A stretch of DNA of 64,000 nucleotides from a virus: IMG/VR virus record IMGVR_UViG_3300042922_000911, positions 1-64,000 of that record; one strand, written 5' to 3'. A model generated the notes under the pieces. It was given only the letters and a program-made list of their open reading frames with translations. It did no database searches and had not been told where the DNA came from. The translations under genes and the position numbers were made by a program. Shown here piece by piece: positions 9,830 to 60,944 of the stretch (its first letter is position 1; the number at the start of each line of letters is the position of its first letter).

Positions 9830-10978
9830 TTAAGCCTCCACTCGGTTGACGGGCATGACCAGGGCGTAAGGCTCCTGGGCGTTGGGGTCGGTCAGGACGA
9901 TGGGCAAGAGCGGCCCGTTGAAATTCAGCGCGACGAGCTCGCTCGAGGACGCCGACAGGGCCTCGTTCAAGAACCCGCCCTTCGCGTGGATCGTGAAGGC
10001 CTCGCCCGGCACCTCGGTTTCCCACTTGATGCCGATCGCGTCGTCGGCGTTGCCGCGATCGCCGTCGGATGCGTGAATGGTCAGCTCGTCTTCGTTGAAC
10101 ACCAGCTTGAGAACGCGGTCTTCTTGGGCCTGGGCGAGAACCATGGTGCGCTCGAGGGCACCGATCAGCTCGCGGCGCACCGCGCTCACGACCTTGGTAA
10201 AGCCCGTGGGGCAAATTTGCTGCACCGGCGGGAACAGCCCGTCGATCGTGCGGGTCGTGATGTAGCGATCGCCAATCAGGAACCCGAGGCTCGTCGCGTG
10301 CTTCTCGCTGGCCGGATAGAAGAGCTGCACCGTTTCGGCCCCGGTGGCCTCGACCACGTTCTTCACCTCGATAATCGCCCGCTTGGGCACGATCACGTTG
10401 AGGGGTTCCCCGCCCTTCGGCCAGTCGAGCAAGTACCGGCTCAGCCGATACCCGTCGGTCGCCTCGATGGCGAGCCGGCCCAATTCGGTGTCGGCCTGGA
10501 CGTGAACGCCGAGCTGCACTTGCGACAGGGCCTCGCCCTTCGCCGTGGCGTACAGGACGTTGCCCACGGCCTCGGCGAAGACCTTGCCGCTCAGCGTCAG
10601 CAGCGGGGCACCCTCGGGCAGCTCCACTTCGGGAAACTCGGCGGCCGAAAGCGTGTTCAGGTGGAATTTCGAGCGGCCCGACTTCAACAGCAGCCGGTTT
10701 TCTTCAAGCGCGAGCTGTACGTCGTCCGAGAGCCTGCCCACAATGTCGCGCAGCACGTCGAACGGCACCGTGATCTCGCCGGATTCAAGCACCATGGCGA
10801 CCGTCGGCACCACGATCGCAAGCTCAAGGTCGGTGCCCTTCAAGACCAGCGTTCCGGCCTTCGCATCGGCGACCAGCAGGGCGTTTTTCAGAATGGGGAG
10901 GGTCTTCGACTTGCCCGCGACGTTTCGGGCGTCACGAAGCGCCGCCTTCAAGGCGGGGAGCGAGATAGTCAGCTTCAT
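9830..10978 (-). CDS. dnaN: DNA polymerase III beta subunit (sliding clamp)
   Basis: LPILKNALL, GTDLELAI, EFP, ATDGYRL, IVPKRAI, IDGLFP and LVMP motifs; about 380 aa. Confidence 0.95.
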   Translation of the reverse strand: MKLTISLPALKAALRDARNVAGKSKTLPILKNALLVADAKAGTLVLKGTDLELAIVVPTVAMVLESGEITVPFDVLRDIVGRLSDDVQLALEENRLLLKSGRSKFHLNTLSAAEFPEVELPEGAPLLTLSGKVFAEAVGNVLYATAKGEALSQVQLGVHVQADTELGRLAIEATDGYRLSRYLLDWPKGGEPLNVIVPKRAIIEVKNVVEATGAETVQLFYPASEKHATSLGFLIGDRYITTRTIDGLFPPVQQICPTGFTKVVSAVRRELIGALERTMVLAQAQEDRVLKLVFNEDELTIHASDGDRGNADDAIGIKWETEVPGEAFTIHAKGGFLNEALSASSSELVALNFNGPLLPIVLTDPNAQEPYALVMPVNRVEA

Positions 10979-11096
10979 GGGGTTCCTTTCCAACACAAGG
11001 GGCCGGAACCACGGGGTTCCGGCCGTCGAGGCGCTATGCCGCTAAGGGAGCGGCGCTGTAAGGGGTTGCGGTAGCCATTTCCGCAACCATTGTACC

Positions 11097-50997: not shown

Positions 50998-52023
50998 ATG
51001 GCTGATACCGTTCATTTCGACACCTTCCACCAGCCTAGCACGGCGGGGTTCTTGTGCCCCGTCTGTCAGGCGTTCTTCGGGGCCTCGACCCCGAAAGCCG
51101 CGCTGGAACAGCACGCTCGCTTCCACGTTCTCGGCGAGGCCCCCGTGCCTCACCGGGAAACGGCGGCGATCGCCCTGATCGGCCGCGAGATCCCCGTGCT
51201 GCCGGATGGCGGGTACGTGAAGCTCGTTGACTTCATGGGCAGCGATCAGCGCATCATCGACGGGGCGCGGGTGTCTTTGGTCGATGCGGCCGCCAAGAAG
51301 ACGCAGAGCCTCGCCGGGCTGATGGCCTACCTGATCCGCAACGCTCACACCAGCCCGCTCGAGCATGTGGTCTTCACGTTTGAGGTCTACTGCCCGATCT
51401 TCATTGCCCGCCAGTGGTTCAGGCACCGCACATGGTCGTTCTCCGAATGGTCAGGGCGTTACGGCGTGCTGCCCGACGCCTTCCACGTCCCTGACGACGC
51501 GCTTCTGTGCGGCCCGTCGGCCATGAACAAGCAGGGCTCGGGCGCGCAGCTCGACGCCGGCAGCCGCTCGATGGTTCGCGAGCTGCTGACCCGCGTGCAG
51601 CGCGCGGCGTTCGATGCCTATCACACCCTGCTCGGCCTGGGCCTCGCTGGCGAGAACGCCCGCATTCTGCTCCCCGTGGGCACCTACACCAAGTTTTACG
51701 CGACGGTGGACTTGAACAACCTGCTCAAGTTCATTGCCCTGCGCGAGGACGGCCACGCGCAGGCGCAAATTCAGGTCTACGGCGCGGCCCTGCGGCAGAT
51801 TGCCGAGGCCGTGGTGCCGGTGGCCATGGACGTGTTCAAGCGTCAGGTCCTCAACGGGGCGCGCTTCAACGAGGGGCAGAAGGGCGTGTTGCTCGCCCTC
51901 GCGGCCGTCGCCGGCCGTCAGGCGATCGTCGAGCAGATGGACGCCGCGGGGCTCACCAGCAAGAGCGAGCGCGGCGAGCTGCTGGCGAAGCTCGGCATGG
52001 AAGCCGAGGGGGAGGCCGCATGA
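50998..52023 (+). CDS. thyX: FAD-dependent thymidylate synthase with N-terminal C2H2-like finger
   Basis: HTSPLEH..RQWFRHRTWSFSEWSGRY. Confidence 0.95.
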   Translation: MADTVHFDTFHQPSTAGFLCPVCQAFFGASTPKAALEQHARFHVLGEAPVPHRETAAIALIGREIPVLPDGGYVKLVDFMGSDQRIIDGARVSLVDAAAKKTQSLAGLMAYLIRNAHTSPLEHVVFTFEVYCPIFIARQWFRHRTWSFSEWSGRYGVLPDAFHVPDDALLCGPSAMNKQGSGAQLDAGSRSMVRELLTRVQRAAFDAYHTLLGLGLAGENARILLPVGTYTKFYATVDLNNLLKFIALREDGHAQAQIQVYGAALRQIAEAVVPVAMDVFKRQVLNGARFNEGQKGVLLALAAVAGRQAIVEQMDAAGLTSKSERGELLAKLGMEAEGEAA

Positions 52024-52811
52024 CCGCTTTCCCCGTCCCTTGCCAGCGGATCTACCTCGCCGGGGCGCAAGCGGCCTATGCCGACGACGTGCGCGGCCGG
52101 TTGCTGCTGTCGAGCTACGGCGACAAGAACGTGACGCGCGTCATGGCGGCGCTCGAGGCGGGCGGCTGGCTGATTGATTCGGGTGCCTACACAGCCTGGT
52201 CGAAAGGCCGGGCGATCGACCTCGACGGCTACATGAGCTTTCTCGATCAGGCGCTCGGGGCCTACCCCGTCGATGGGTACTTCGCCCTGGACGTGATTCC
52301 CGGCCGCGTGGGCGGGATGCCGACGGCCGACGAGGTTAAGCGGGCGTGGGAAGCGTCCATGGTCAACCTCGACCGGATGCAGGCTCGAGGCTTCGCGCCG
52401 ATTCCGGTCTTCCACTTCGGGGCGGATTGGGCACGGCTCGACGAGCTCATAGCCGGGGGGTTCGACGTGATCGCCCTCGGCGGCACAGTCAAGAAGCCCC
52501 GGCCCGCCGTGCTGGCGTGGCTCGACGAGGCGTTCGCCCGCTACCCCGCGCAGAAATTCCACGGCCTCGGCTGCACCAGCGAGGCCCAACTTACCCGAAT
52601 CCCCTTCTGGTCGTGCGATTCGACTTCGTGGCTGACCCTCGCCATGTTCGGCGTGGGCGGCAACGAATGGCTGCTTCGTGGGCGATCGTCGAGGGCTCTT
52701 CGCCGCATCGGCCTGGTCGCCTTCGACGACCTCGCATCGAACGCGGCCCCCCGCAAACCACGCGCCCGGCGCAAGACGGTGACGCAGCTCCCCCTAGCCT
52801 TTGAGAGGTGA
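52020..52811 (+). CDS. TGT-fold DpdA-like DNA transglycosylase
   Basis: IDSGAY..LDVIPG..IPVFH..IALGG..FHGLG..SCDSTSW; adjacent to queDEC. Confidence 0.75.
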   Translation: MTAFPVPCQRIYLAGAQAAYADDVRGRLLLSSYGDKNVTRVMAALEAGGWLIDSGAYTAWSKGRAIDLDGYMSFLDQALGAYPVDGYFALDVIPGRVGGMPTADEVKRAWEASMVNLDRMQARGFAPIPVFHFGADWARLDELIAGGFDVIALGGTVKKPRPAVLAWLDEAFARYPAQKFHGLGCTSEAQLTRIPFWSCDSTSWLTLAMFGVGGNEWLLRGRSSRALRRIGLVAFDDLASNAAPRKPRARRKTVTQLPLAFER

Positions 52812-52815
52812 ACCC

Positions 52816-53268
52816 ATGACCACGACGACCCCTTACGTCGCGACCGTGTGGCGAGAAGTCGAGTTTCACGCCAGCCACCAGCTTCCCTACCACGACGGCA
52901 AATGCGCGCGGCCCCACGGCCACAACTTCAAGATGCGCGTGAGCGTCACCGGCCCCGTGCAGGACGACGACCCCGCGAATCCCGAGAGCGGCATGGTGAT
53001 CGACCTCGCCAAGCTCGGCGACCTGATGAAGACGGCCGGGGAGCTGTACTTCGACCACCACAACATCAACGAAACGACGGGCATCCTGTGCCCGACCTCC
53101 GAGCGGCTGGCGTGGTACGTCGGCATCTACGCCAAGCACCACATCGAGGCCCGCGACGGCGCGGCCTACGTGTCGAGCGTGAGCGTCCAAGAAACCGACC
53201 GATCGGGGGCGATCGTCGCCTTTGTCGGCAAGGGCGTCGAGAGCGGGAGGGAAGCGGCATGGGTGTAA
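52816..53268 (+). CDS. queD: 6-carboxytetrahydropterin synthase
   Basis: FHASHQL..KCARPHGHN..GMVID..DH..PTSE..ET. Confidence 0.92.
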   Translation: MTTTTPYVATVWREVEFHASHQLPYHDGKCARPHGHNFKMRVSVTGPVQDDDPANPESGMVIDLAKLGDLMKTAGELYFDHHNINETTGILCPTSERLAWYVGIYAKHHIEARDGAAYVSSVSVQETDRSGAIVAFVGKGVESGREAAWV

Positions 53269-53930
53269 GCGTCAGCTACCCCGTCGCCGAGCTCTTCGCG
53301 AGCTTCCAGGGCGAGGGCGTCTTCGCTGGTCAGGGGGCCTTGTTCGCCCGCTTGATGGGCTGTGACGTGAAGTGCTGGTTCTGCGACCAGGCCGAAACGT
53401 GGCGACCCGACGCCGTGAAGCTCGACGGCATCCGGCACATGCACGGCTACGAGATCGCCGAGGCGCTTCACGCCCTCGTCGGTGGCGACTATGCCAAGAT
53501 GCCCGAGCGGGTGATCGTCACCGGCGGCGAGCCGACCATTCACGATCTCGCGCCGCTCTTCCACGCCCTCGACGACATTGGGCTGAACGTCCATGTCGAA
53601 ACCGCCGGGCACCGGCCGCTGCCCCGCGGGGCGCATTGGGTGACGGTCGCACCGAAGCTGGTGCCCAAGTACCCCGGCATCAACCGCGACACGCTGCTCG
53701 CGGCCCATGAGTTCAAGTGCGTGGTGACGGAACCCGGCGACATGGCCCGCTATGACACGCTTTTCGCCGAGCATCCGGTCTTTAACCACCTCAAGACGCC
53801 CGTTTACTACATTCCCGAGGCATCGAAAGTCAACGATGGGGCCATTCTCGCGGCGATCGCCGAGCGGGTCGGCCGGGGCGGCCGGTATCGCGCCGGGGTG
53901 CAGCTCCACAAGCAGTTTGCGGTCAGGTAG
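53259..53930 (+). CDS. queE: 7-carboxy-7-deazaguanine synthase (radical SAM)
   Basis: SFQGEG..CDVKCWFCD..TGGEP..ETAG..QLHK. Confidence 0.93.
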   Translation: MGVSVSYPVAELFASFQGEGVFAGQGALFARLMGCDVKCWFCDQAETWRPDAVKLDGIRHMHGYEIAEALHALVGGDYAKMPERVIVTGGEPTIHDLAPLFHALDDIGLNVHVETAGHRPLPRGAHWVTVAPKLVPKYPGINRDTLLAAHEFKCVVTEPGDMARYDTLFAEHPVFNHLKTPVYYIPEASKVNDGAILAAIAERVGRGGRYRAGVQLHKQFAVR

Positions 53931-53935
53931 GAAGG

Positions 53936-54631
53936 ATGAACCCCATGAACATTCGTCGCAGCGTGGTTGTGCTGTCGGGCGGGCTGGATTCGACGACGTG
54001 CGCCCTGATGGCGAACGCCCTGACCTCGGTCGCGGCCGTGGTGCATTTCGACTACGGCCAGCGGCACGGCGTCGAGCGGGAATGCTTCGACTATTGGGCC
54101 AAGCGGCTCGCCGTTCCGGCCTACGTCATTCCCGTGCCCTCGCTCGAGCTGGTGGGGGCGTCGGCCCTCACGGCCGGGCCGTTGGCCCTCGACCCCAACG
54201 AGCGGCACCCGCAGAACGCGACGCTGCCGGCGAGCTTCGTGCCCGGCCGCAACCTCGTCTTCCTCACCCTCGCAGCCGCGCTCGCCGAAAAGCTCGGCGC
54301 GTCGGAGGTCTGGACGGGCGTGTGCGGCAACGACCACGCGGGCTACCCCGACTGTCGCCCCGACACGATGGAAGCCTTGCAGCTCGCCATCCGGCGCGGC
54401 ATGGGCACCGACGGAATCAAGCTGATCACGCCCTTCATTCATCAGGACAAGGGCTCGATCTGGAAGGCGGCCGAAGCCACTGGCCACCTCGCCGAGATCA
54501 TCGAGCATACGCATACCTGCTACCGGGGCGAGCGCAAGCGGCGGCTCCCGTGGGGCTACGGTTGCAGCCGGTGCATGGCCTGCGACGAGCGCCGCGCGGG
54601 CTTCAACGCCCATTTCGGCGATCGGAGGTAG
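53936..54631 (+). CDS. queC: 7-cyano-7-deazaguanine synthase
   Basis: SGGLDS, FDYGQRH, VPGRN, YPDCR, TCY..CSRCMAC. Confidence 0.95.
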   Translation: MNPMNIRRSVVVLSGGLDSTTCALMANALTSVAAVVHFDYGQRHGVERECFDYWAKRLAVPAYVIPVPSLELVGASALTAGPLALDPNERHPQNATLPASFVPGRNLVFLTLAAALAEKLGASEVWTGVCGNDHAGYPDCRPDTMEALQLAIRRGMGTDGIKLITPFIHQDKGSIWKAAEATGHLAEIIEHTHTCYRGERKRRLPWGYGCSRCMACDERRAGFNAHFGDRR

Positions 54632-54633
54632 CC

Positions 54634-54867
54634 ATGGACACGCAGATCGATCGGGTTGAAATGACCGTGCATGGTGTCGTTCGCGACGACCACGCCGCCG
54701 TTCCTTTCCGCGTGACGTTCTCGGGGCGCGGGGCGGTGGATGCCTCGCTGTTCTTCCCCGATGGGGTCGATGAAGAGGCCTTGTACCTGCCCATGCTGCA
54801 CGCGGCCGTCATGGCGGCGTGGAAAGCCAGGCCCAAGAAGGCGACAGCGGCGAGGGGGGCGGATTGA
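54634..54867 (+). CDS. Small hypothetical protein
   Basis: GGAGG SD; stop overlaps the MTase start. Confidence 0.6.
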   Translation: MDTQIDRVEMTVHGVVRDDHAAVPFRVTFSGRGAVDASLFFPDGVDEEALYLPMLHAAVMAAWKARPKKATAARGAD

Positions 54868-56180
54868 TGCTACGGAAGGGACTTGTCACCCGAAACGACC
54901 GCTGGGAGCTTCATTACGGCGATTGCCTGAAAGACGGCATTCTCGCCTCGATGCCCGACGAGAGCGTTCACAGCGTCGTTCTCGACGGCCCGTATGGGTT
55001 CGACCCGAAGAAGGACGACTATCAGGCCGGCGACGACGCCCCGGCAACCGCTGGCGAGGGGAGCTGGGACCAGGCCGACGCCCGGCGCGACATGTCAGAC
55101 GCCGCCCAGGCCGACGACCTCACCGAGGCCGAGCGCCTGCGGAACCGGCTGACCCGTGGGGTCAACTACCTCGACGGCGGCGATCGCCTCACCACCGACA
55201 ACGAAACGTGGGGCGTGGATTCGGTCGTCGGCGGCTACGCGGCCGAGAAGGGCATGGTCGAGCTGCCCCGCTACATCATGCCGCCGGAAGCCATGTTCAA
55301 CTTTCAGCTTTGGTGCGCCGAGTGGGCGCGCGAAGACTTGCGGCTGCTCAAGCCCGGCGGCTTCCTGCTCGCCTTCTGCTCGACGAAGTGCTATCACCGG
55401 CAGGCCGTGGGCATCGAAGACGCGGGCTTTGAGGTGCGCGACATGATCCACTGGATCTACGGCCAGGGCATGCCCAAGGGCACCATGGCCTGGAAGGCCT
55501 ACGAACGCAGCTCCAAGGCCCCCGCCGGCCTGAAAGCCAAGAAGAAAGGCACGATCCTCACCACGCCCGAAACCGACGAGGGCCGCGCGCTCTTCGGCTG
55601 GCACACGGGGCTCAAGCCCGGCCATGAGCCGATCGTCGTCGCCCGCAAGCCGTTCAAGGGCACCATCTACGGCAACATGCAGGCGCACGGCACCGGGGCG
55701 TTCAACATCGAGGGCTGCGCGGTGCCCGGTGGCCTCGACCAGGACGACCGGCACCCGTCGAACGTGATTGTGACCCACAGCCCCGAGTGTGTGAAGGGCG
55801 CGGCGTGCGTGCCGTGGTGCCCCGTGCCGCAGATGGAGGCGCGCTTCGCTGGCGCGTCGGGCTACTTCAAATGCCTGTATTGGGAGCCGGGCGAGTGGGA
55901 ATGGCAAGTGGCGAGCCGCTACGTGCCCAAGCCCGGCAAGAAAGAGAAGGGCGCGGGCCGGGAACACCCGACCGTGAAGCCCGTGGCCCTGATGAAAGAG
56001 CTTACCCGGCTTGTGACCCCTCGAGGGGGCCGCGTGCTGGATCACTTCGGCGGGTCAGGCACGACGGGCGTCGCTGCCATCGACGAAGGCTTTTACCCCG
56101 TGCTGGTTGAGCGTGCCCCCAAGTACCTACGCATCATCCAGCAGCGTTGCGGGAGCGCACAGCTCCCCCTATTCAAATAG
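54867..56180 (+). CDS. DNA amino-methyltransferase (N4C/N6A, beta class)
   Basis: DGPY (motif IV variant), WIYGQGMPK, LKPGHEPI, HPTVKP, DHFGGSGTTG. Confidence 0.85.
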   Translation: MLRKGLVTRNDRWELHYGDCLKDGILASMPDESVHSVVLDGPYGFDPKKDDYQAGDDAPATAGEGSWDQADARRDMSDAAQADDLTEAERLRNRLTRGVNYLDGGDRLTTDNETWGVDSVVGGYAAEKGMVELPRYIMPPEAMFNFQLWCAEWAREDLRLLKPGGFLLAFCSTKCYHRQAVGIEDAGFEVRDMIHWIYGQGMPKGTMAWKAYERSSKAPAGLKAKKKGTILTTPETDEGRALFGWHTGLKPGHEPIVVARKPFKGTIYGNMQAHGTGAFNIEGCAVPGGLDQDDRHPSNVIVTHSPECVKGAACVPWCPVPQMEARFAGASGYFKCLYWEPGEWEWQVASRYVPKPGKKEKGAGREHPTVKPVALMKELTRLVTPRGGRVLDHFGGSGTTGVAAIDEGFYPVLVERAPKYLRIIQQRCGSAQLPLFK

Positions 56181-56207
56181 GCCCGAGGCCGGGCCGGGAG
56201 GACCACC

Positions 56208-56855
56208 ATGGAGAACCACAACCCCTTAACCCTCGACGAGCTCGCCGAAGAGCTCGCGCAGACGAGAACCGCGTGCGACGAGCTGGAAGCAGCCGCCGGC
56301 CGCTACGCGAGCATCTTCGACCGTTTCATGCTGCCCTTAGCTGCCGCCGCGGGCATCCCCGGCGTGCAAGACCCCGAGGTAGTCTTGCCCGAGGCGATCG
56401 CCCGGCTTGTTACACAGGACGGGATGATCGACCGGCGGAACGACCGGCTAAACCAGCCTGACGACGGCTGGAAGGGTGCATGCATGGCCCTCGCCCAGGT
56501 CGTCGCCGACAACCCGCGCTTGGGCCACCTGATGCCCATAGGGCTCGAGGTCAGCGTCACCGACCTCATTACACAGGCGATCACCTACCTGTCGCGCGAC
56601 CTCGACAATGCCGAGGCCGAGGTGAAGAGCCTGCGCGAGCGCCTGCAAAGCGAGCAGCAAGCCCACGGCGGCACGTTCGCGCGCCTGAAAGCGGCGCAAC
56701 GAGAGGCGGGCGCGGCCTACGACATTCTCGGCGACGCCTCGCTCGCGGTGAACGTGGCGAGTGACGTGCTTCGCAGCGTTCGCGACGGCGTGCTGCGCGA
56801 AGACGTGCCCGAGGGCGTGGCAGAAACGGCCGTTCCCGAGGCCCCTGAATCGTAA
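56208..56855 (+). CDS. Hypothetical coiled-coil protein
   Basis: GGAGG SD; helical. Confidence 0.65.
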   Translation: MENHNPLTLDELAEELAQTRTACDELEAAAGRYASIFDRFMLPLAAAAGIPGVQDPEVVLPEAIARLVTQDGMIDRRNDRLNQPDDGWKGACMALAQVVADNPRLGHLMPIGLEVSVTDLITQAITYLSRDLDNAEAEVKSLRERLQSEQQAHGGTFARLKAAQREAGAAYDILGDASLAVNVASDVLRSVRDGVLREDVPEGVAETAVPEAPES

Positions 56856-57037
56856 CATAGGGGACAGAAACGCCCCCTTGCTCGACGCCCCAAGCGGCCA
56901 CAGCAGCGCCTTTCGGCCGCGCTGGCCGGTTATGTTACTTGCATTGTTGAGCATTGATAAGTTTCCAGTCGAAAGTTTGCATACTAGCGCCTGAGTGTTT
57001 TACATTGGGAAACATTCGGCAGGAAGGAGCCACCCGC

Positions 57038-59470
57038 ATGATCACGGCAAACGCGCAAAGCGTGCTGGAAAAGCGGTATTACCTGAAAGACGACAGCGGC
57101 GTTCTGATTGAGAAGACGCCCGAGGACCTGTGGGGCCGCGTGAGCCGCGCCGTCGCTGAACCCGAGCGGGTTTACAGCGCCGAGGCCTACGACCTGGCCC
57201 AAGCCAACTTTTACGGCATTCTGCTCGCGGGCGACTTCACGCCCAACAGCCCGGCGATCGCCAACGCGGGCGCGCGCACCGGCCAGTGTTCGGCGTGCTT
57301 CGTGCTGCCGCTCGAGGACGACCTGGGCGGCATCTTCGACACCGTGAAGCACACGGCACTCATTCACCAGACTGGCGGCGGCACCGGGTTCAGCCTGTCG
57401 CGCCTGCGGCCGAAAGACGACTTCGTGCGCTCGACCGGCGGCAAGTCGAGCGGCCCGCTCACCTTCGCCGACGTGCTGAACGCGGCCACCGAGAGCATCA
57501 AGCAGGGCGGCATGCGCCGGGGTGCCAACATGGGCATGTTGCGGATCGATCACCCTGACATTCTCGACTTCATCGAGTACAAAGACGACCTGACCAAGCT
57601 CACCAACTTCAACATCAGCGTCGCCGTTACACAGGCGTTTCTCGACGCCTACGACGCCGGCACCAGCTACGACCTGATCAACCCGCGCACCGGGGCCGTC
57701 ACCGGAAGCCTCGACGCCCGCACGGTCATGAAGAACATCGTTCACCACGCCTGGAAGACGGGCGAGCCGGGCCTTGCCTTCATCGACCGCATGAACGAGT
57801 ATTGCCCGGTGCCCTGGATGGGGCAGTACGAGGCGACCAACCCGTGCGGCGAACAGCCCCTTTTGCCCTACGAGAGCTGCAACCTCGGCAGCATCGACCT
57901 CGCGAAGTTCGTCGTCGAGACACCGACCGGCCCCGCGCTCGACTGGAACCGGCTGGCGTGGGCGATTCACGTCGGGACGCACTTCCTCGACAACATCGTG
58001 TCGATCAACCAGTTCCCGATCCCCGAGCTGAAACGCATGAGCGACCTCACGCGCAAGATCGGCCTCGGCGTGATGGGATGGGCGCGGCTGCTGCTGCTGC
58101 TCGGCATCGGTTACGGCAGCGACGAATCGCTCTCGCTCGCCCGTCAGGTGGCCTCGTTCCTCGACTACCATTCCAAGCTCGCGAGCATCGAGCTTGCCAA
58201 GTGGCGGGGCAGCTTCCCGGCACGCGCCGGGCACGAAGACGAGTTCAATGCGTTCTTCGACCGCATCTGCGCCGAGCGTCAGGCCAAGCCCGACCGTCAC
58301 CCGTCGTGCGACTACATCAGCCTCGCCGAGCTGCAACGGCAGTACGGCATCAGGAACAGCAACACGACGACCGAGGCCCCCACGGGCACGATCTCGATTA
58401 TCGCCGGCACCACGGGCGGCATCGAGCCGATCTTCGCGCTGGCCTTCAAGCGGTGGCAGGCCGACATGCACATGCTGGATTCGGAACCGACCTTTGAAGC
58501 GTTCCTCGCCAAGCGCGGGTTCGACGCCGAGCGCCTGGTCGAGCTGCTGCGTCAGGTGGACGAGAACCACGGGACGCTGACCGGCCTCGACGTGACCCCG
58601 TACAGCGCCCATGAGCAAAGCATCATCGACGCGGCCCGCCCCATCTTCACGGTGGCCCATGACGTGACGCCGCGCCAGCACATCGAAACGCAGGCGGCGT
58701 GGCAGGACTTCAACGATAGCGCCATCAGCAAGACCGTCAACTTCGACGAGAGCGCGACCGAAGACGACGTGGAAGAGGTGTACAAGCTCGCCATCCTGCG
58801 CGGCTGCAAGGGCGTGACGGTTTACCGCAACAACAGCCGCAAGCACCAGCCGCTCAGCGTCAGCGAGAAGCCCGCGGCCGACCTTGCGGCCCCCGAGGTG
58901 GCGGCGGCGATCGCCCGCGCGGCCGACCGCATTCTCGCCACCGAGCCCCGCGAGCGTCGCACCGACCTGTACGGGTACACCCGCGAGGTCAAGACCGGGG
59001 AGGGTAACTTGTACCTGACGCTCAACTACGACGAGCAGGGGTTGCGCGAGGTGTTCGGCAACCTCGGCCGCTCGGGCGGCACGCTCCACAGCCTCACCGA
59101 GGCGATCGGCCGGCTGGCCTCGCTCGCCTTGCAGTTCAACGTGCCCCGCGACGAGGTGGCGCGTGCCCTCGTCGGCATCCGAGGCCCCGAGCCGGTCGGG
59201 TTCGGCCCTCGACAGATTCTCTCGATCCCCGACGCCATCGGCAAGGCGATCGCGTCAGCTCCCCGTTCCCTTAACGGTGAGCTGCCCACGATGGAAGCCC
59301 CACGCGAGGCGATCGCCAAGCAGCCGGTTCCCGTCGCTGCCGAGGCCAAACGGCTCGAGGCCGTCGCCGTCTACGGCAAGTCGCCCGATTGCCCTGAATG
59401 CAGCTCTCGCCTCGACTTCGGGGAAGGCTGCATGACGTGCCATTCGTGCGGCTACTCGAAATGTAGCTAG
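57038..59470 (+). CDS. nrdJ: Class II (B12-dependent) ribonucleotide reductase with C-terminal Zn ribbon
   Basis: PNSP, CSACFV, GGGTG, RRGANM, TNPCGEQ, CNLGS, APTGT, SKTVN, C-terminal CPEC..CHSCGYSKC; no beta subunit adjacent. Confidence 0.92.
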   Translation: MITANAQSVLEKRYYLKDDSGVLIEKTPEDLWGRVSRAVAEPERVYSAEAYDLAQANFYGILLAGDFTPNSPAIANAGARTGQCSACFVLPLEDDLGGIFDTVKHTALIHQTGGGTGFSLSRLRPKDDFVRSTGGKSSGPLTFADVLNAATESIKQGGMRRGANMGMLRIDHPDILDFIEYKDDLTKLTNFNISVAVTQAFLDAYDAGTSYDLINPRTGAVTGSLDARTVMKNIVHHAWKTGEPGLAFIDRMNEYCPVPWMGQYEATNPCGEQPLLPYESCNLGSIDLAKFVVETPTGPALDWNRLAWAIHVGTHFLDNIVSINQFPIPELKRMSDLTRKIGLGVMGWARLLLLLGIGYGSDESLSLARQVASFLDYHSKLASIELAKWRGSFPARAGHEDEFNAFFDRICAERQAKPDRHPSCDYISLAELQRQYGIRNSNTTTEAPTGTISIIAGTTGGIEPIFALAFKRWQADMHMLDSEPTFEAFLAKRGFDAERLVELLRQVDENHGTLTGLDVTPYSAHEQSIIDAARPIFTVAHDVTPRQHIETQAAWQDFNDSAISKTVNFDESATEDDVEEVYKLAILRGCKGVTVYRNNSRKHQPLSVSEKPAADLAAPEVAAAIARAADRILATEPRERRTDLYGYTREVKTGEGNLYLTLNYDEQGLREVFGNLGRSGGTLHSLTEAIGRLASLALQFNVPRDEVARALVGIRGPEPVGFGPRQILSIPDAIGKAIASAPRSLNGELPTMEAPREAIAKQPVPVAAEAKRLEAVAVYGKSPDCPECSSRLDFGEGCMTCHSCGYSKCS

Positions 59471-59500
59471 AAGACCACCACGACAGGAAAAGACCACCAC

Positions 59501-60331
59501 ATGAAACCCGTTACCCTCAACCTCGTTAGCTATTCAGGCGGCAAGGATTCCGGCGCGCTTGTGCTGCACCTCATGGAGCAGGGCGTGCCGAATCTGGTGC
59601 TGGTGTTCTGCGATACCCATTGGGAACACCCGGCGACCTACCGCTATGCCTACGAGTTCGCCCAGGCCGTCGGCCTGCGCCTGCGGGTCGTCGATTCCGA
59701 GGGCATGGTGAACCTGTGCCTTCGGAAGAAGCGCGCCCCGTCTACGCGCGTGCGGTTCTGCACCCAGGAATTGAAGCTCAAGCCGTTTGAACGCTACGTC
59801 AAGACCCTGCATGAGCAGGGCTTCGATACGGTCGTCTGGATCGGCGTGCGCGCGGAGGAAAGCCCCGCGCGCGCCAAGATGCCCGAGAGCGAGCATTCGG
59901 ATTACTACGATTGCGAGGTGCGACGCCCCATCCTCGGTTACACCATCGACGACGTGAAGGCCATTCACGCCCGCCACGGCCTCGAGCTGAACCCCTTGTA
60001 CAAGCTCGGCATGGGCCGCGTGGGCTGCATGCCCTGCATCATGGCGAATAAGGACGAGCTGAAAAGCATTGCCGACCGCTTCCCCGAGGTGTTCGACAAG
60101 GTGGCCGATCTTGAAGACAAGCTCGGCCGCACGTTCTGGACGGCCGGGGACACCCCGACCCGCTTCTGCTCCAAGGTGGCCGTCACGAAAGACGGCCGCC
60201 ATGTGCCCGTGCCGACCGCGCGGGACGTGAGGACGTGGGCGACGACGGAGAGGGGCCAGGCACCGGGGCAAGTCCCGATGTTTGAACCCCCTGTGCCCGC
60301 GTGCAGTTCCAAATACAACCTATGTGAGTGA
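59501..60331 (+). CDS. PAPS-reductase/DndC-like PP-loop protein
   Basis: SYSGGKDS, DTHWEHP, FCTQELK, GVRAEES..R, RVGCMPC. Confidence 0.85.
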   Translation: MKPVTLNLVSYSGGKDSGALVLHLMEQGVPNLVLVFCDTHWEHPATYRYAYEFAQAVGLRLRVVDSEGMVNLCLRKKRAPSTRVRFCTQELKLKPFERYVKTLHEQGFDTVVWIGVRAEESPARAKMPESEHSDYYDCEVRRPILGYTIDDVKAIHARHGLELNPLYKLGMGRVGCMPCIMANKDELKSIADRFPEVFDKVADLEDKLGRTFWTAGDTPTRFCSKVAVTKDGRHVPVPTARDVRTWATTERGQAPGQVPMFEPPVPACSSKYNLCE

Positions 60332-60464: not shown

Positions 60465-60944
60465 ATGCGATTCTACGTCGCCACAACCTTCGACAATTGG
60501 GCATTGGCGGAACGCTACGCCAACGCCCTGACCTCGGCGGGCTACACTTGCACCTTGCCCTGGTGGAAGTACCACCCGAGCCAGCGGCCCAAGGGCATGC
60601 CCGTGGATCTTCAAGCGATTGCCCGGCAGGAGGTCGAGGCCGTCGAGAAGTCCGATCTGTTGTTCCTGCTGCACCCGGCCAAGGACGGCTCTCACGTCGA
60701 GCTGGGCGTCGCCCTCGCCAACCGCGCCGAGGTCGTGGTCGTCGGGCCTGACGTGGACGACGAAACGGCGTGCATCTTCTACCGGCACCCGGCGGTCATG
60801 CGAATTGCGCTCGAGGCCGAAGCGTTCCTGACGAGCGGGGGGCCTGCGAAGCTCGCTGACTTCATCTGGCATAACCGGCTCGCCCCGTGGGCCAACGCTG
60901 CTTACCACGAGCTCGGCACGGCCGCCGCGATCGTCGAGGCCTGA
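60465..60944 (+). CDS. Nucleoside 2-deoxyribosyltransferase/nucleotide N-glycosidase-like protein
   Basis: FYVA..EVEAVEKSDLL..GSHVELGVALA. Confidence 0.7.
   Translation: MRFYVATTFDNWALAERYANALTSAGYTCTLPWWKYHPSQRPKGMPVDLQAIARQEVEAVEKSDLLFLLHPAKDGSHVELGVALANRAEVVVVGPDVDDETACIFYRHPAVMRIALEAEAFLTSGGPAKLADFIWHNRLAPWANAAYHELGTAAAIVEA

Follow-up and report, generated by a model that had tools for sequence, protein, structure and literature searches.

Clients of the bacterial beta sliding clamp carry short clamp-binding motifs (CBMs), whose canonical forms are Q-phi-x-[L/M]-[F/L] and Q-phi-x-[L/M]-x-[F/L], with QLxLF and QLxLxF as the forms of highest affinity (2024 review, PMC11139829). Known examples are Pol II (QLGLF), Pol IV (QLVLGL), Pol V (QLNLF), Hda (QLSLPL), Pol III alpha (QADMF) and MutS/MutL (PMC11139829; Dalrymple 2001). 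Here we consider peptides of this type at or near the C termini of three putative DNA-modification enzymes of a virus: a DpdA-like DNA guanine transglycosylase, an N6/N4 amino DNA methyltransferase (MTase) and a PP-loop enzyme resembling 3'-phosphoadenosine-5'-phosphosulfate (PAPS) reductases. All three are encoded, together with a DnaN-type clamp, in a 64,000-nucleotide stretch of DNA (the window), the first 64 kb of viral record IMGVR_UViG_3300042922_000911. We put the probability at about 0.6 that the tails of DpdA (QLPLAF) and the MTase (QLPLF) are beta-clamp-binding motifs that dock on the phage and/or host DnaN and so favour modification of freshly replicated DNA.

The likeness to the classical clients lies in the motif grammar, in the placing of the peptide on a disordered tail (DpdA) or at the extreme C terminus (MTase), and in the pocket into which the peptide is modelled. 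Whereas those clients are polymerases, repair proteins and initiation regulators, the carriers here are a transglycosylase and an amino-methyltransferase. The word 'methyl' is absent from the 2024 clamp review (PMC11139829), and literature searches that combined clamp motifs with methyltransferases, PAPS reductases or DpdA brought up no relevant paper. The grammar of the motif is known; its DNA-modifying carriers are new.

The closest functional analogue is eukaryotic: DNMT1 is tethered to PCNA via a PCNA-interacting peptide (PIP) box, which couples maintenance methylation to replication (PMC9690074). In both cases a DNA methyltransferase would ride on a replication clamp through a short motif and mark new DNA promptly, the binding being a prediction for the phage enzyme; the two differ in clamp (a beta dimer as opposed to a PCNA trimer), in motif (CBM as opposed to PIP box) and in outcome (anti-restriction protection as opposed to epigenetic inheritance). 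The closest phage precedent is MuC of phage Mu, which uses a CBM on the beta clamp that is needed for late transcription, a role with experimental support (bioRxiv 10.1101/2025.01.04.631326). MuC is likewise a phage-encoded, non-replicative protein with a canonical CBM, but it is a transcription activator that works with the host clamp, whereas the present carriers are DNA-modification enzymes and the phage brings a clamp of its own. In phages T4 and RB69, the gp45 clamp has gp43, gp55 and gp33 as clients, which dock by their C-terminal tails. The arrangement proposed here resembles this in that phage proteins would have one common C-terminal docking peptide for the phage's own clamp, although both the clamp family and the motif are different.

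Bacterial Dpd systems and the DpdA clusters of phages (PMC6884629) set a TGT-like DpdA beside queC, queD and queE, as does this locus. Bacterial DpdA is described as needing the DpdB ATPase for insertion (PMC10164549); unlike in that system, no DpdB was seen here, where no search aimed at DpdB was made, and a CBM-like tail is present instead. The tails of phage DpdA proteins are not discussed in PMC6884629, in which 'C-terminal' occurs 0 times.

Predicted docking of the DpdA tail

Each of the three motifs lies in frame in its gene at the position given in Table 1, and all three fit the CBM definition of PMC11139829, which bears out the resemblance to clamp-docking peptides pointed out in an earlier, sequence-only reading of this DNA. 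That reading proposed structure prediction against DnaN as a check. Complex prediction was performed with the phage DnaN, for which an alignment of 28 rows was used (bacterial DnaNs from prophage-bearing genomes), and DpdA residues 219-263. Divergent phage clamps, of 15-25% identity and without the MP C terminus, gave too noisy an alignment and were not used for folding; six phage clamp loci served solely for a local hidden Markov model.

The DpdA tail was placed in the canonical pocket of the phage clamp, at subsites I and II, with an interface score (ipSAE) of 0.65, compared with 0.00 for the best of three controls. The mark taken to indicate docking is reached by 58 of 80 solved complexes and by 2 of 110 mismatched pairs, counts that are rough since custom alignments were used. 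Docking runs share at least 68% of their contacts, with a partner predicted local distance difference test score (pLDDT) of at least 43. Contacts are made by DpdA residues 253-262 (TVTQLPLAFE) with DnaN residues 174, 176-179, 250-251, 254-255, 333, 357, 359, 373 and 375-381. In the alignment of bacterial clamps these correspond to the E. coli pocket positions 172, 174-177, 242, 246-247, 320, 344, 346, 360 and 362-366. Such a model demonstrates likeness to a clamp-peptide complex rather than binding.

The AlphaFold2 model of DpdA, with a mean pLDDT of 89.5, ends in a helix at residues 224-240, beyond which residues 252-263 fall below a pLDDT of 50 (40-45 in the tail). As modelled, the profile is that expected of a linear motif carried by a flexible end. 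The sequence-only reading had described all three motifs as following a basic or flexible tail. That description suits DpdA (PRKPRARRKTVT, pLDDT <50); the MTase has merely a four-residue linker (CGSA), and the corresponding region of the PAPS-like protein is coil but is modelled with a pLDDT of 80-89.

Conservation of the DpdA and MTase tails

Motif conservation, the lack of which had been named as grounds for abandoning the idea, is seen in relatives of all three enzymes. For DpdA, tblastn retrieved DpdA/TGT-like relatives in 237 phage records. In the family alignment D53, D91, H181 and D200 are invariant, and the closest relatives, found by exhaustive phmmer search, have tails that include QLPLF, QLALF (their last five residues), QLTLL, QMALF, QLSLF, QLRLF and QVSIF. 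The top 30 of these relatives include five with a CBM tail, compared with 0.2 in shuffles, and when the 15 closest DpdAs are aligned, a Q-x-x-[LMF]-[FL] end follows a linker of variable length in 11-12 of them. The two nearest viral relatives end in QLPMF (locus L010) and QLRMF (locus L011).

The MTase has 7245 homologues at E <= 1e-5. Its family alignment retains as invariant D40, P42 and Y43 of the D-x-P-Y motif and F394, G396, S397 and G398 of the F-x-G-S-G S-adenosylmethionine (SAM) motif. A CBM falls within the last 30 residues of 25 of the 119 homologues listed, as against 1.2 in shuffled tails (maximum 5); at the density found in protein bodies, from which the motif is nearly absent, about 0.1 would be expected. 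In the nearest relatives the peptide at this position is QLPLF, QLPLI, QLPLV or NLPIF; in more distant ones QLSLF, QLGLF, QLELF or QLDMF stands behind a linker whose length differs greatly between proteins, and x-[LMI]-F tails occur in about 30 of 80 viral homologues. By likeness to known clamp clients, we infer that the MTase, too, would dock on the clamp.

How far the motifs exceed chance

In the phage itself, 3 of 82 open reading frames (ORFs) encode a CBM within the last 25 residues, compared with 0.53 in shuffles (P = 0.0185). It is because of conservation in homologues that the set amounts to more than chance. The fate of the idea that modification is tethered to the clamp is mixed: motif fit, conservation, the disorder of the DpdA tail and its modelled docking, the preserved core of the clamp pocket and the lack of a phage polymerase speak for it, whereas the PAPS-like enzyme, the linkage to phage dnaN and a C5 cytosine methyltransferase without a motif do not. 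Overall, the sequence-only reading is partly supported.

A number of observations weigh against clamp binding by the tails. The window taken by itself is only suggestive, with a modest C-terminal excess (P about 0.02), and CBMs anywhere in the phage proteins show no enrichment (8, compared with 7.0 in shuffles). A word-indexed homologue search found no tailed DpdA among 20 matches and suggested that the tail was unique, a result overturned by the exhaustive search. A wide regular expression applied to 149 DpdA representatives matched 7, compared with 1.4 in shuffles whose maximum was also 7; the tail signal is therefore restricted to the nearest subfamily. The homologue counts are not phylogenetically independent. 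The MTase motif stands only four residues past the last helix, which could limit its reach, and the C5 cytosine methyltransferase of the same phage has no CBM-like motif. The docking result may reflect memory of abundant solved clamp-peptide complexes rather than this pair. As for a tie to the phage clamp in particular, co-occurrence of such tails with phage dnaN had been put forward as a check, and no such linkage is seen: a dnaN-like gene is found in 1 of 42 viral records with a related MTase and in none of those with canonical-tailed DpdA relatives.

A further reservation concerns the origin of the tails. The QLPL codons of DpdA (52785-52796) and of the MTase (56160-56171) are an identical 12 nucleotides, CAGCTCCCCCTA, found nowhere else in the window, so that the two QLPL tails may not have been gained independently, one perhaps having been copied recently from the other. 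Among the shared codons is CTA, a rare one that accounts for 22 (1.2%) of the Leu codons in all genes of at least 150 residues; of these 22, 3 sit in the last 17 codons of the MTase gene (two) and of the PAPS-like gene (one). As an alternative to recent copying, codon optimisation may not reach the ends of the tails. In homologues the motifs are written in different rare codons, which are often AT-rich.

The 12-nucleotide CAGCTCCCCCTA was also considered as a signal at the DNA level and set aside, with only two sites in the window and other codons in the relatives.

The tails might bind another hub, such as the phage single-stranded DNA-binding protein (SSB), the DnaC-like loader, each other, or a protease or chaperone, or they might be partnerless hydrophobic ends whose likeness to CBMs is coincidental. 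Short hydrophobic C-terminal peptides do serve many systems, and this explanation draws on the same modest excess within the phage. We nevertheless consider it improbable: the feature common to the three unrelated enzyme families, 10- to 100-fold more frequent than in shuffled tails, is the specific pattern Q-L-x-L-(x)-F and not mere hydrophobicity; the DpdA peptide is modelled in the canonical clamp pocket where controls score zero; and the type of DpdA tail tracks the presence of a clamp gene.

The phage clamp and the proposed mechanism

The phage DnaN is a full three-domain clamp, with matches to PF00712, PF02767 and PF02768 and a TIGR00663 score of 188 bits (equivalog cut-off 137.65). The motifs by which it had been recognised, ATDGYRL and LVMP, are present at residues 173-179 and 373-376. 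Its closest solved relative is the Pseudomonas aeruginosa clamp (~33% identity) and its closest phage match is from a Synechococcus phage (30%); used alone as a query, it found no relatives among viral contigs, and seven phage clamps, when aligned, offered no stretch conserved enough for scanning. Alignment with bacterial clamps indicates that the pocket core is kept (T174, L179, P250, I255, L373, M375 and P376) and that the rim is changed (H175 to Y177, R246 to Q254, N320 to K333 and R365 to N378, the first residue of each pair in E. coli-like numbering).

The viral record of 95,822 bp encodes, besides DnaN, a DnaC-like loader, SSB, a class II ribonucleotide reductase (RNR) and ThyX. The window had been noted to lack a polymerase, and this extends to the whole record, which has a CheckV completeness of only 60% and gave no match to DNA polymerase families A, B or C (Pol A, Pol B, Pol III alpha). 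With its own clamp and no polymerase, the phage therefore has to pair a host polymerase with the phage clamp, and the phage clamp must therefore accept host-type CBMs. In the mechanism that we favour, the phage clamp would serve host Pol III and retain a canonical pocket, which the phage enzymes would share. Their tails would bind a DnaN-type clamp, that of the phage, the host or both, at the hydrophobic pocket between its domains II and III. Because clamp loading takes place at the fork and the clamps stay behind on the new duplex, preQ0 insertion and methylation would be concentrated on fresh phage DNA. Within this scheme, the coupling to replication and the fork, the specific role of the phage clamp and the protective benefit are inferred.

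If the tails bind the clamp, anti-restriction marks would be laid by replication-coupled enzymes, which would explain how each genome copy is protected before host nucleases act. DNA methyltransferases and base-exchange enzymes would join the short list of beta-clamp clients, giving a bacterial or phage counterpart of DNMT1-PCNA, and tail deletion or competing CBM peptides would provide a handle with which to dissect or block phage DNA modification. Clamp binding could also explain why clamp genes are frequent in DpdA-bearing phages. A broader view would make clamp tethering by polymerase-type peptides a general, undescribed phage strategy, in which the self-encoded clamp of this phage is mainly a private landing pad that loads DpdA and the MTase on nascent DNA and replaces DNA engagement of the DpdB type; this we regard as rather unlikely.

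Phage clamp or host clamp

A dnaN-like gene occurs in 24 of 50 DpdA-bearing IMG/VR records, compared with the single case among 42 MTase-bearing ones (Fisher P = 2.6e-7). In about 45 of 80 loci the clamp gene is within 10 kb of dpdA, and it accompanies 33 of 45 DpdAs with hydrophobic C-terminal tails and 8 of 30 with other tails. The clamps of DpdA-bearing viral records (loci L010-L113) are divergent and beta-like, and the DpdAs in clamp-rich records end in WPW-x-FK...G-F-G-L, G-F-F, G-[FL]-x-phi or x-[LMI]-F. By contrast, canonical-tailed DpdA relatives come without a clamp gene, among them those at loci L011 (genome G002) and L017 (genome G007), both 100% complete. This pattern speaks for DpdA tails and clamps being linked in general: a canonical tail would be matched to a canonical or host clamp, and a private tail to a divergent clamp of the phage. 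In the present phage, canonical tails and a bona fide DnaN occur together.

Since CBM-tailed relatives occur without dnaN, the tails do not depend on a clamp encoded by the phage, and that of the host is a natural candidate for the receptor, on these distributions at least as likely as the phage clamp. Taken further, the receptor would be the host beta clamp, the phage dnaN would be an unrelated accessory that raises the clamp supply for host Pol III, and there would be no dedicated clamp-modification system. The rarity of dnaN in viral records with a related MTase, many of whose tails are CBM-like, is consistent with this, as are the complete genomes just mentioned and the presence of CBM-like motifs on the PAPS-like enzymes and MTases of prophages from Pseudomonas, Enterobacterales, Bacteroidota and Bacillota, for which the host supplies the clamp. 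Against it stand the preserved pocket core of the phage clamp, in which the DpdA tail is modelled, and the strong overall association of DpdA genes with phage clamp genes; host and phage receptors are, moreover, not mutually exclusive. An exclusive host receptor is thus a serious possibility, though one that we hold only tentatively, and docking on either clamp or both is retained as the preferred reading.

The PAPS-reductase-like enzyme

The third carrier was proposed to be a clamp client and, by extension, to act on DNA. Its fold is that of a PAPS/APS (adenosine 5'-phosphosulfate) reductase, the top Foldseek matches being CysH and APS reductases (E 1.5e-10), and it is an equivalog neither of CysH (41 bits compared with 165) nor of DndC (36 bits compared with 290). 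PDB entry 21fy ('PptA') is a weak match, and no publication was traced for 'PptA'. Invariant in the family are SGGKDS (S12-G13-G14-K15-D16-S17), C87, C176 and C179 (GCMPC), C268 and C275, and the five invariant cysteines suggest Fe-S or persulfide chemistry. The proteins end in C-x-S-x-Y-G-L-C-E, with C268 in 117, Y272 in 111, C275 in 119 and E276 in 118 of 120 sequences.

The CBM-like peptide, found in prophages of the four bacterial groups named above, occupies a fixed aligned position with the consensus G-[KRG]-Q-[LYIF]-[DPS]-[LM]-[FL]-x-[ED][ED], the motif columns having Q in 72 of 120 and F or L in 95 of 120. In the AlphaFold2 model (mean pLDDT 95.8) the last 26 residues (251-276) are coil, with block pLDDT values of 89 and 83 for the motif blocks and 80 for the last block. 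The model thus makes the motif an ordered element of the enzyme itself, within its Cys-bearing C-terminal lid, and this weakens the case for this enzyme as a clamp client; with QVPMF lying within an ordered lid, both clamp binding and the action on DNA deduced from it are left doubtful.

The Q-x-x-[LM]-F element may instead be intramolecular, part of a mobile Cys lid that packs on the body over the active site or Fe-S centre in the manner of CysH. E. coli CysH has its catalytic Cys in a flexible C-terminal ECGLH tail, and the shared reductase fold, the invariant cysteines (among them the pair in GCMPC and two within the final nine residues) and the well-ordered coil, so different from the floppy DpdA tail, all fit such a lid. 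The consensus, however, is exactly of the QL[SD]LF type and is followed by acidic residues, as in many CBMs. The flanking spacers differ in length between proteins (4-27 residues to the Cys, 4-12 from an upstream W/Y anchor); linear motifs commonly behave in this way, whereas it would be strange in an element that packs at a fixed place. Some prophages with the motif (L153, L170 and L177) also encode CBM-tailed MTases; the tail of the L153 MTase reads ...PQIDLFEARA and a PAPS-like motif ...GGAQFDLL. We judge the lid to be a close contender that falls slightly short of an even chance, and for QVPMF as modelled the odds of clamp binding are about even.

Gene neighbourhood and viral record

The coordinates of the features are collected in Table 1. 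The start codon of dpdA is an ATG that overlaps the thyX stop as ATGA. Its product has no match in Pfam or NCBIfam; the family match, the queD, queE and queC genes directly downstream and the confident alpha/beta model are together what identifies a phage DpdA, which is predicted to exchange G for preQ0 in DNA. GTP cyclohydrolase I (FolE, PF01227) was not found in the whole genome, and the phage preQ0 route (queD, queE, queC) must therefore begin at host dihydroneopterin triphosphate. The default predicted product of the phage pathway is dPreQ0.

Table 1. Coordinates of the clamp, the candidate clamp clients, their motifs and neighbouring genes (positions in the window unless stated).
Feature	Position	Strand	Remarks
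dnaN (beta sliding clamp)	9830..10978	-	382 aa from ATG at 10978; upstream GTG at 10996 would give 388 aa
DpdA-like DNA guanine transglycosylase	52020..52811	+	263 aa; phrog_887 at 4.5e-32
QLPLAF (DpdA residues 256-261)	52785..52802	+	Hexameric QLxLxF-type CBM, two residues from C terminus
queD (6-carboxytetrahydropterin synthase)	52816..53268	+	PF01242, 87 bits
queE (7-carboxy-7-deazaguanine synthase, radical SAM)	53259..53930	+	Weak PF04055 match (26.6 bits, below cut-off); assigned from its place between queD and queC
queC (7-cyano-7-deazaguanine synthase)	53936..54631	+	PF06508, 199 bits
N6/N4 amino DNA methyltransferase	54867..56180	+	437 aa; PF01555, 85.3 bits (threshold 26.7); phrog_67 at 6.8e-54
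QLPLF (MTase residues 432-436)	56160..56174	+	Pentameric QLxLF-type CBM, one residue from C terminus
PAPS-reductase-like PP-loop enzyme	59501..60331	+	276 aa; PF01507, 93.4 bits (threshold 22.5); phrog_424 at 1.9e-62
QVPMF (PAPS-like residues 257-261)	60269..60283	+	CBM-like Q-phi-x-M-F, 6 residues ahead of C-terminal Cys motif
CSSKYNLCE (C-terminal Cys motif)	60302..60328	+	Likely catalytic or Fe-S lid
Nucleoside 2-deoxyribosyltransferase-like gene	60465..60944		Follows PAPS-like gene; weak Pfam match (25.6 bits, below cut-off)
C5 cytosine methyltransferase	63369..65075 (whole-record coordinates)		568 aa; PF00145 covers only the first 170 residues

The nucleoside 2-deoxyribosyltransferase-like gene has no CBM-like motif. 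A megablast of the region against 50,697 phage records gave no match. The viral record has a G+C content of 66% and direct terminal repeats. The HIP1 octamer GCGATCGC is present in 92 copies in the whole genome, compared with 3.6 expected from base composition, and 56 of these occur as GGCGATCGCC; this excess suggests a high-GC cyanobacterial host. The 9-mer TTACACAGG, flagged in the sequence-only reading, has 48 plus-strand and 8 minus-strand copies in the whole genome.

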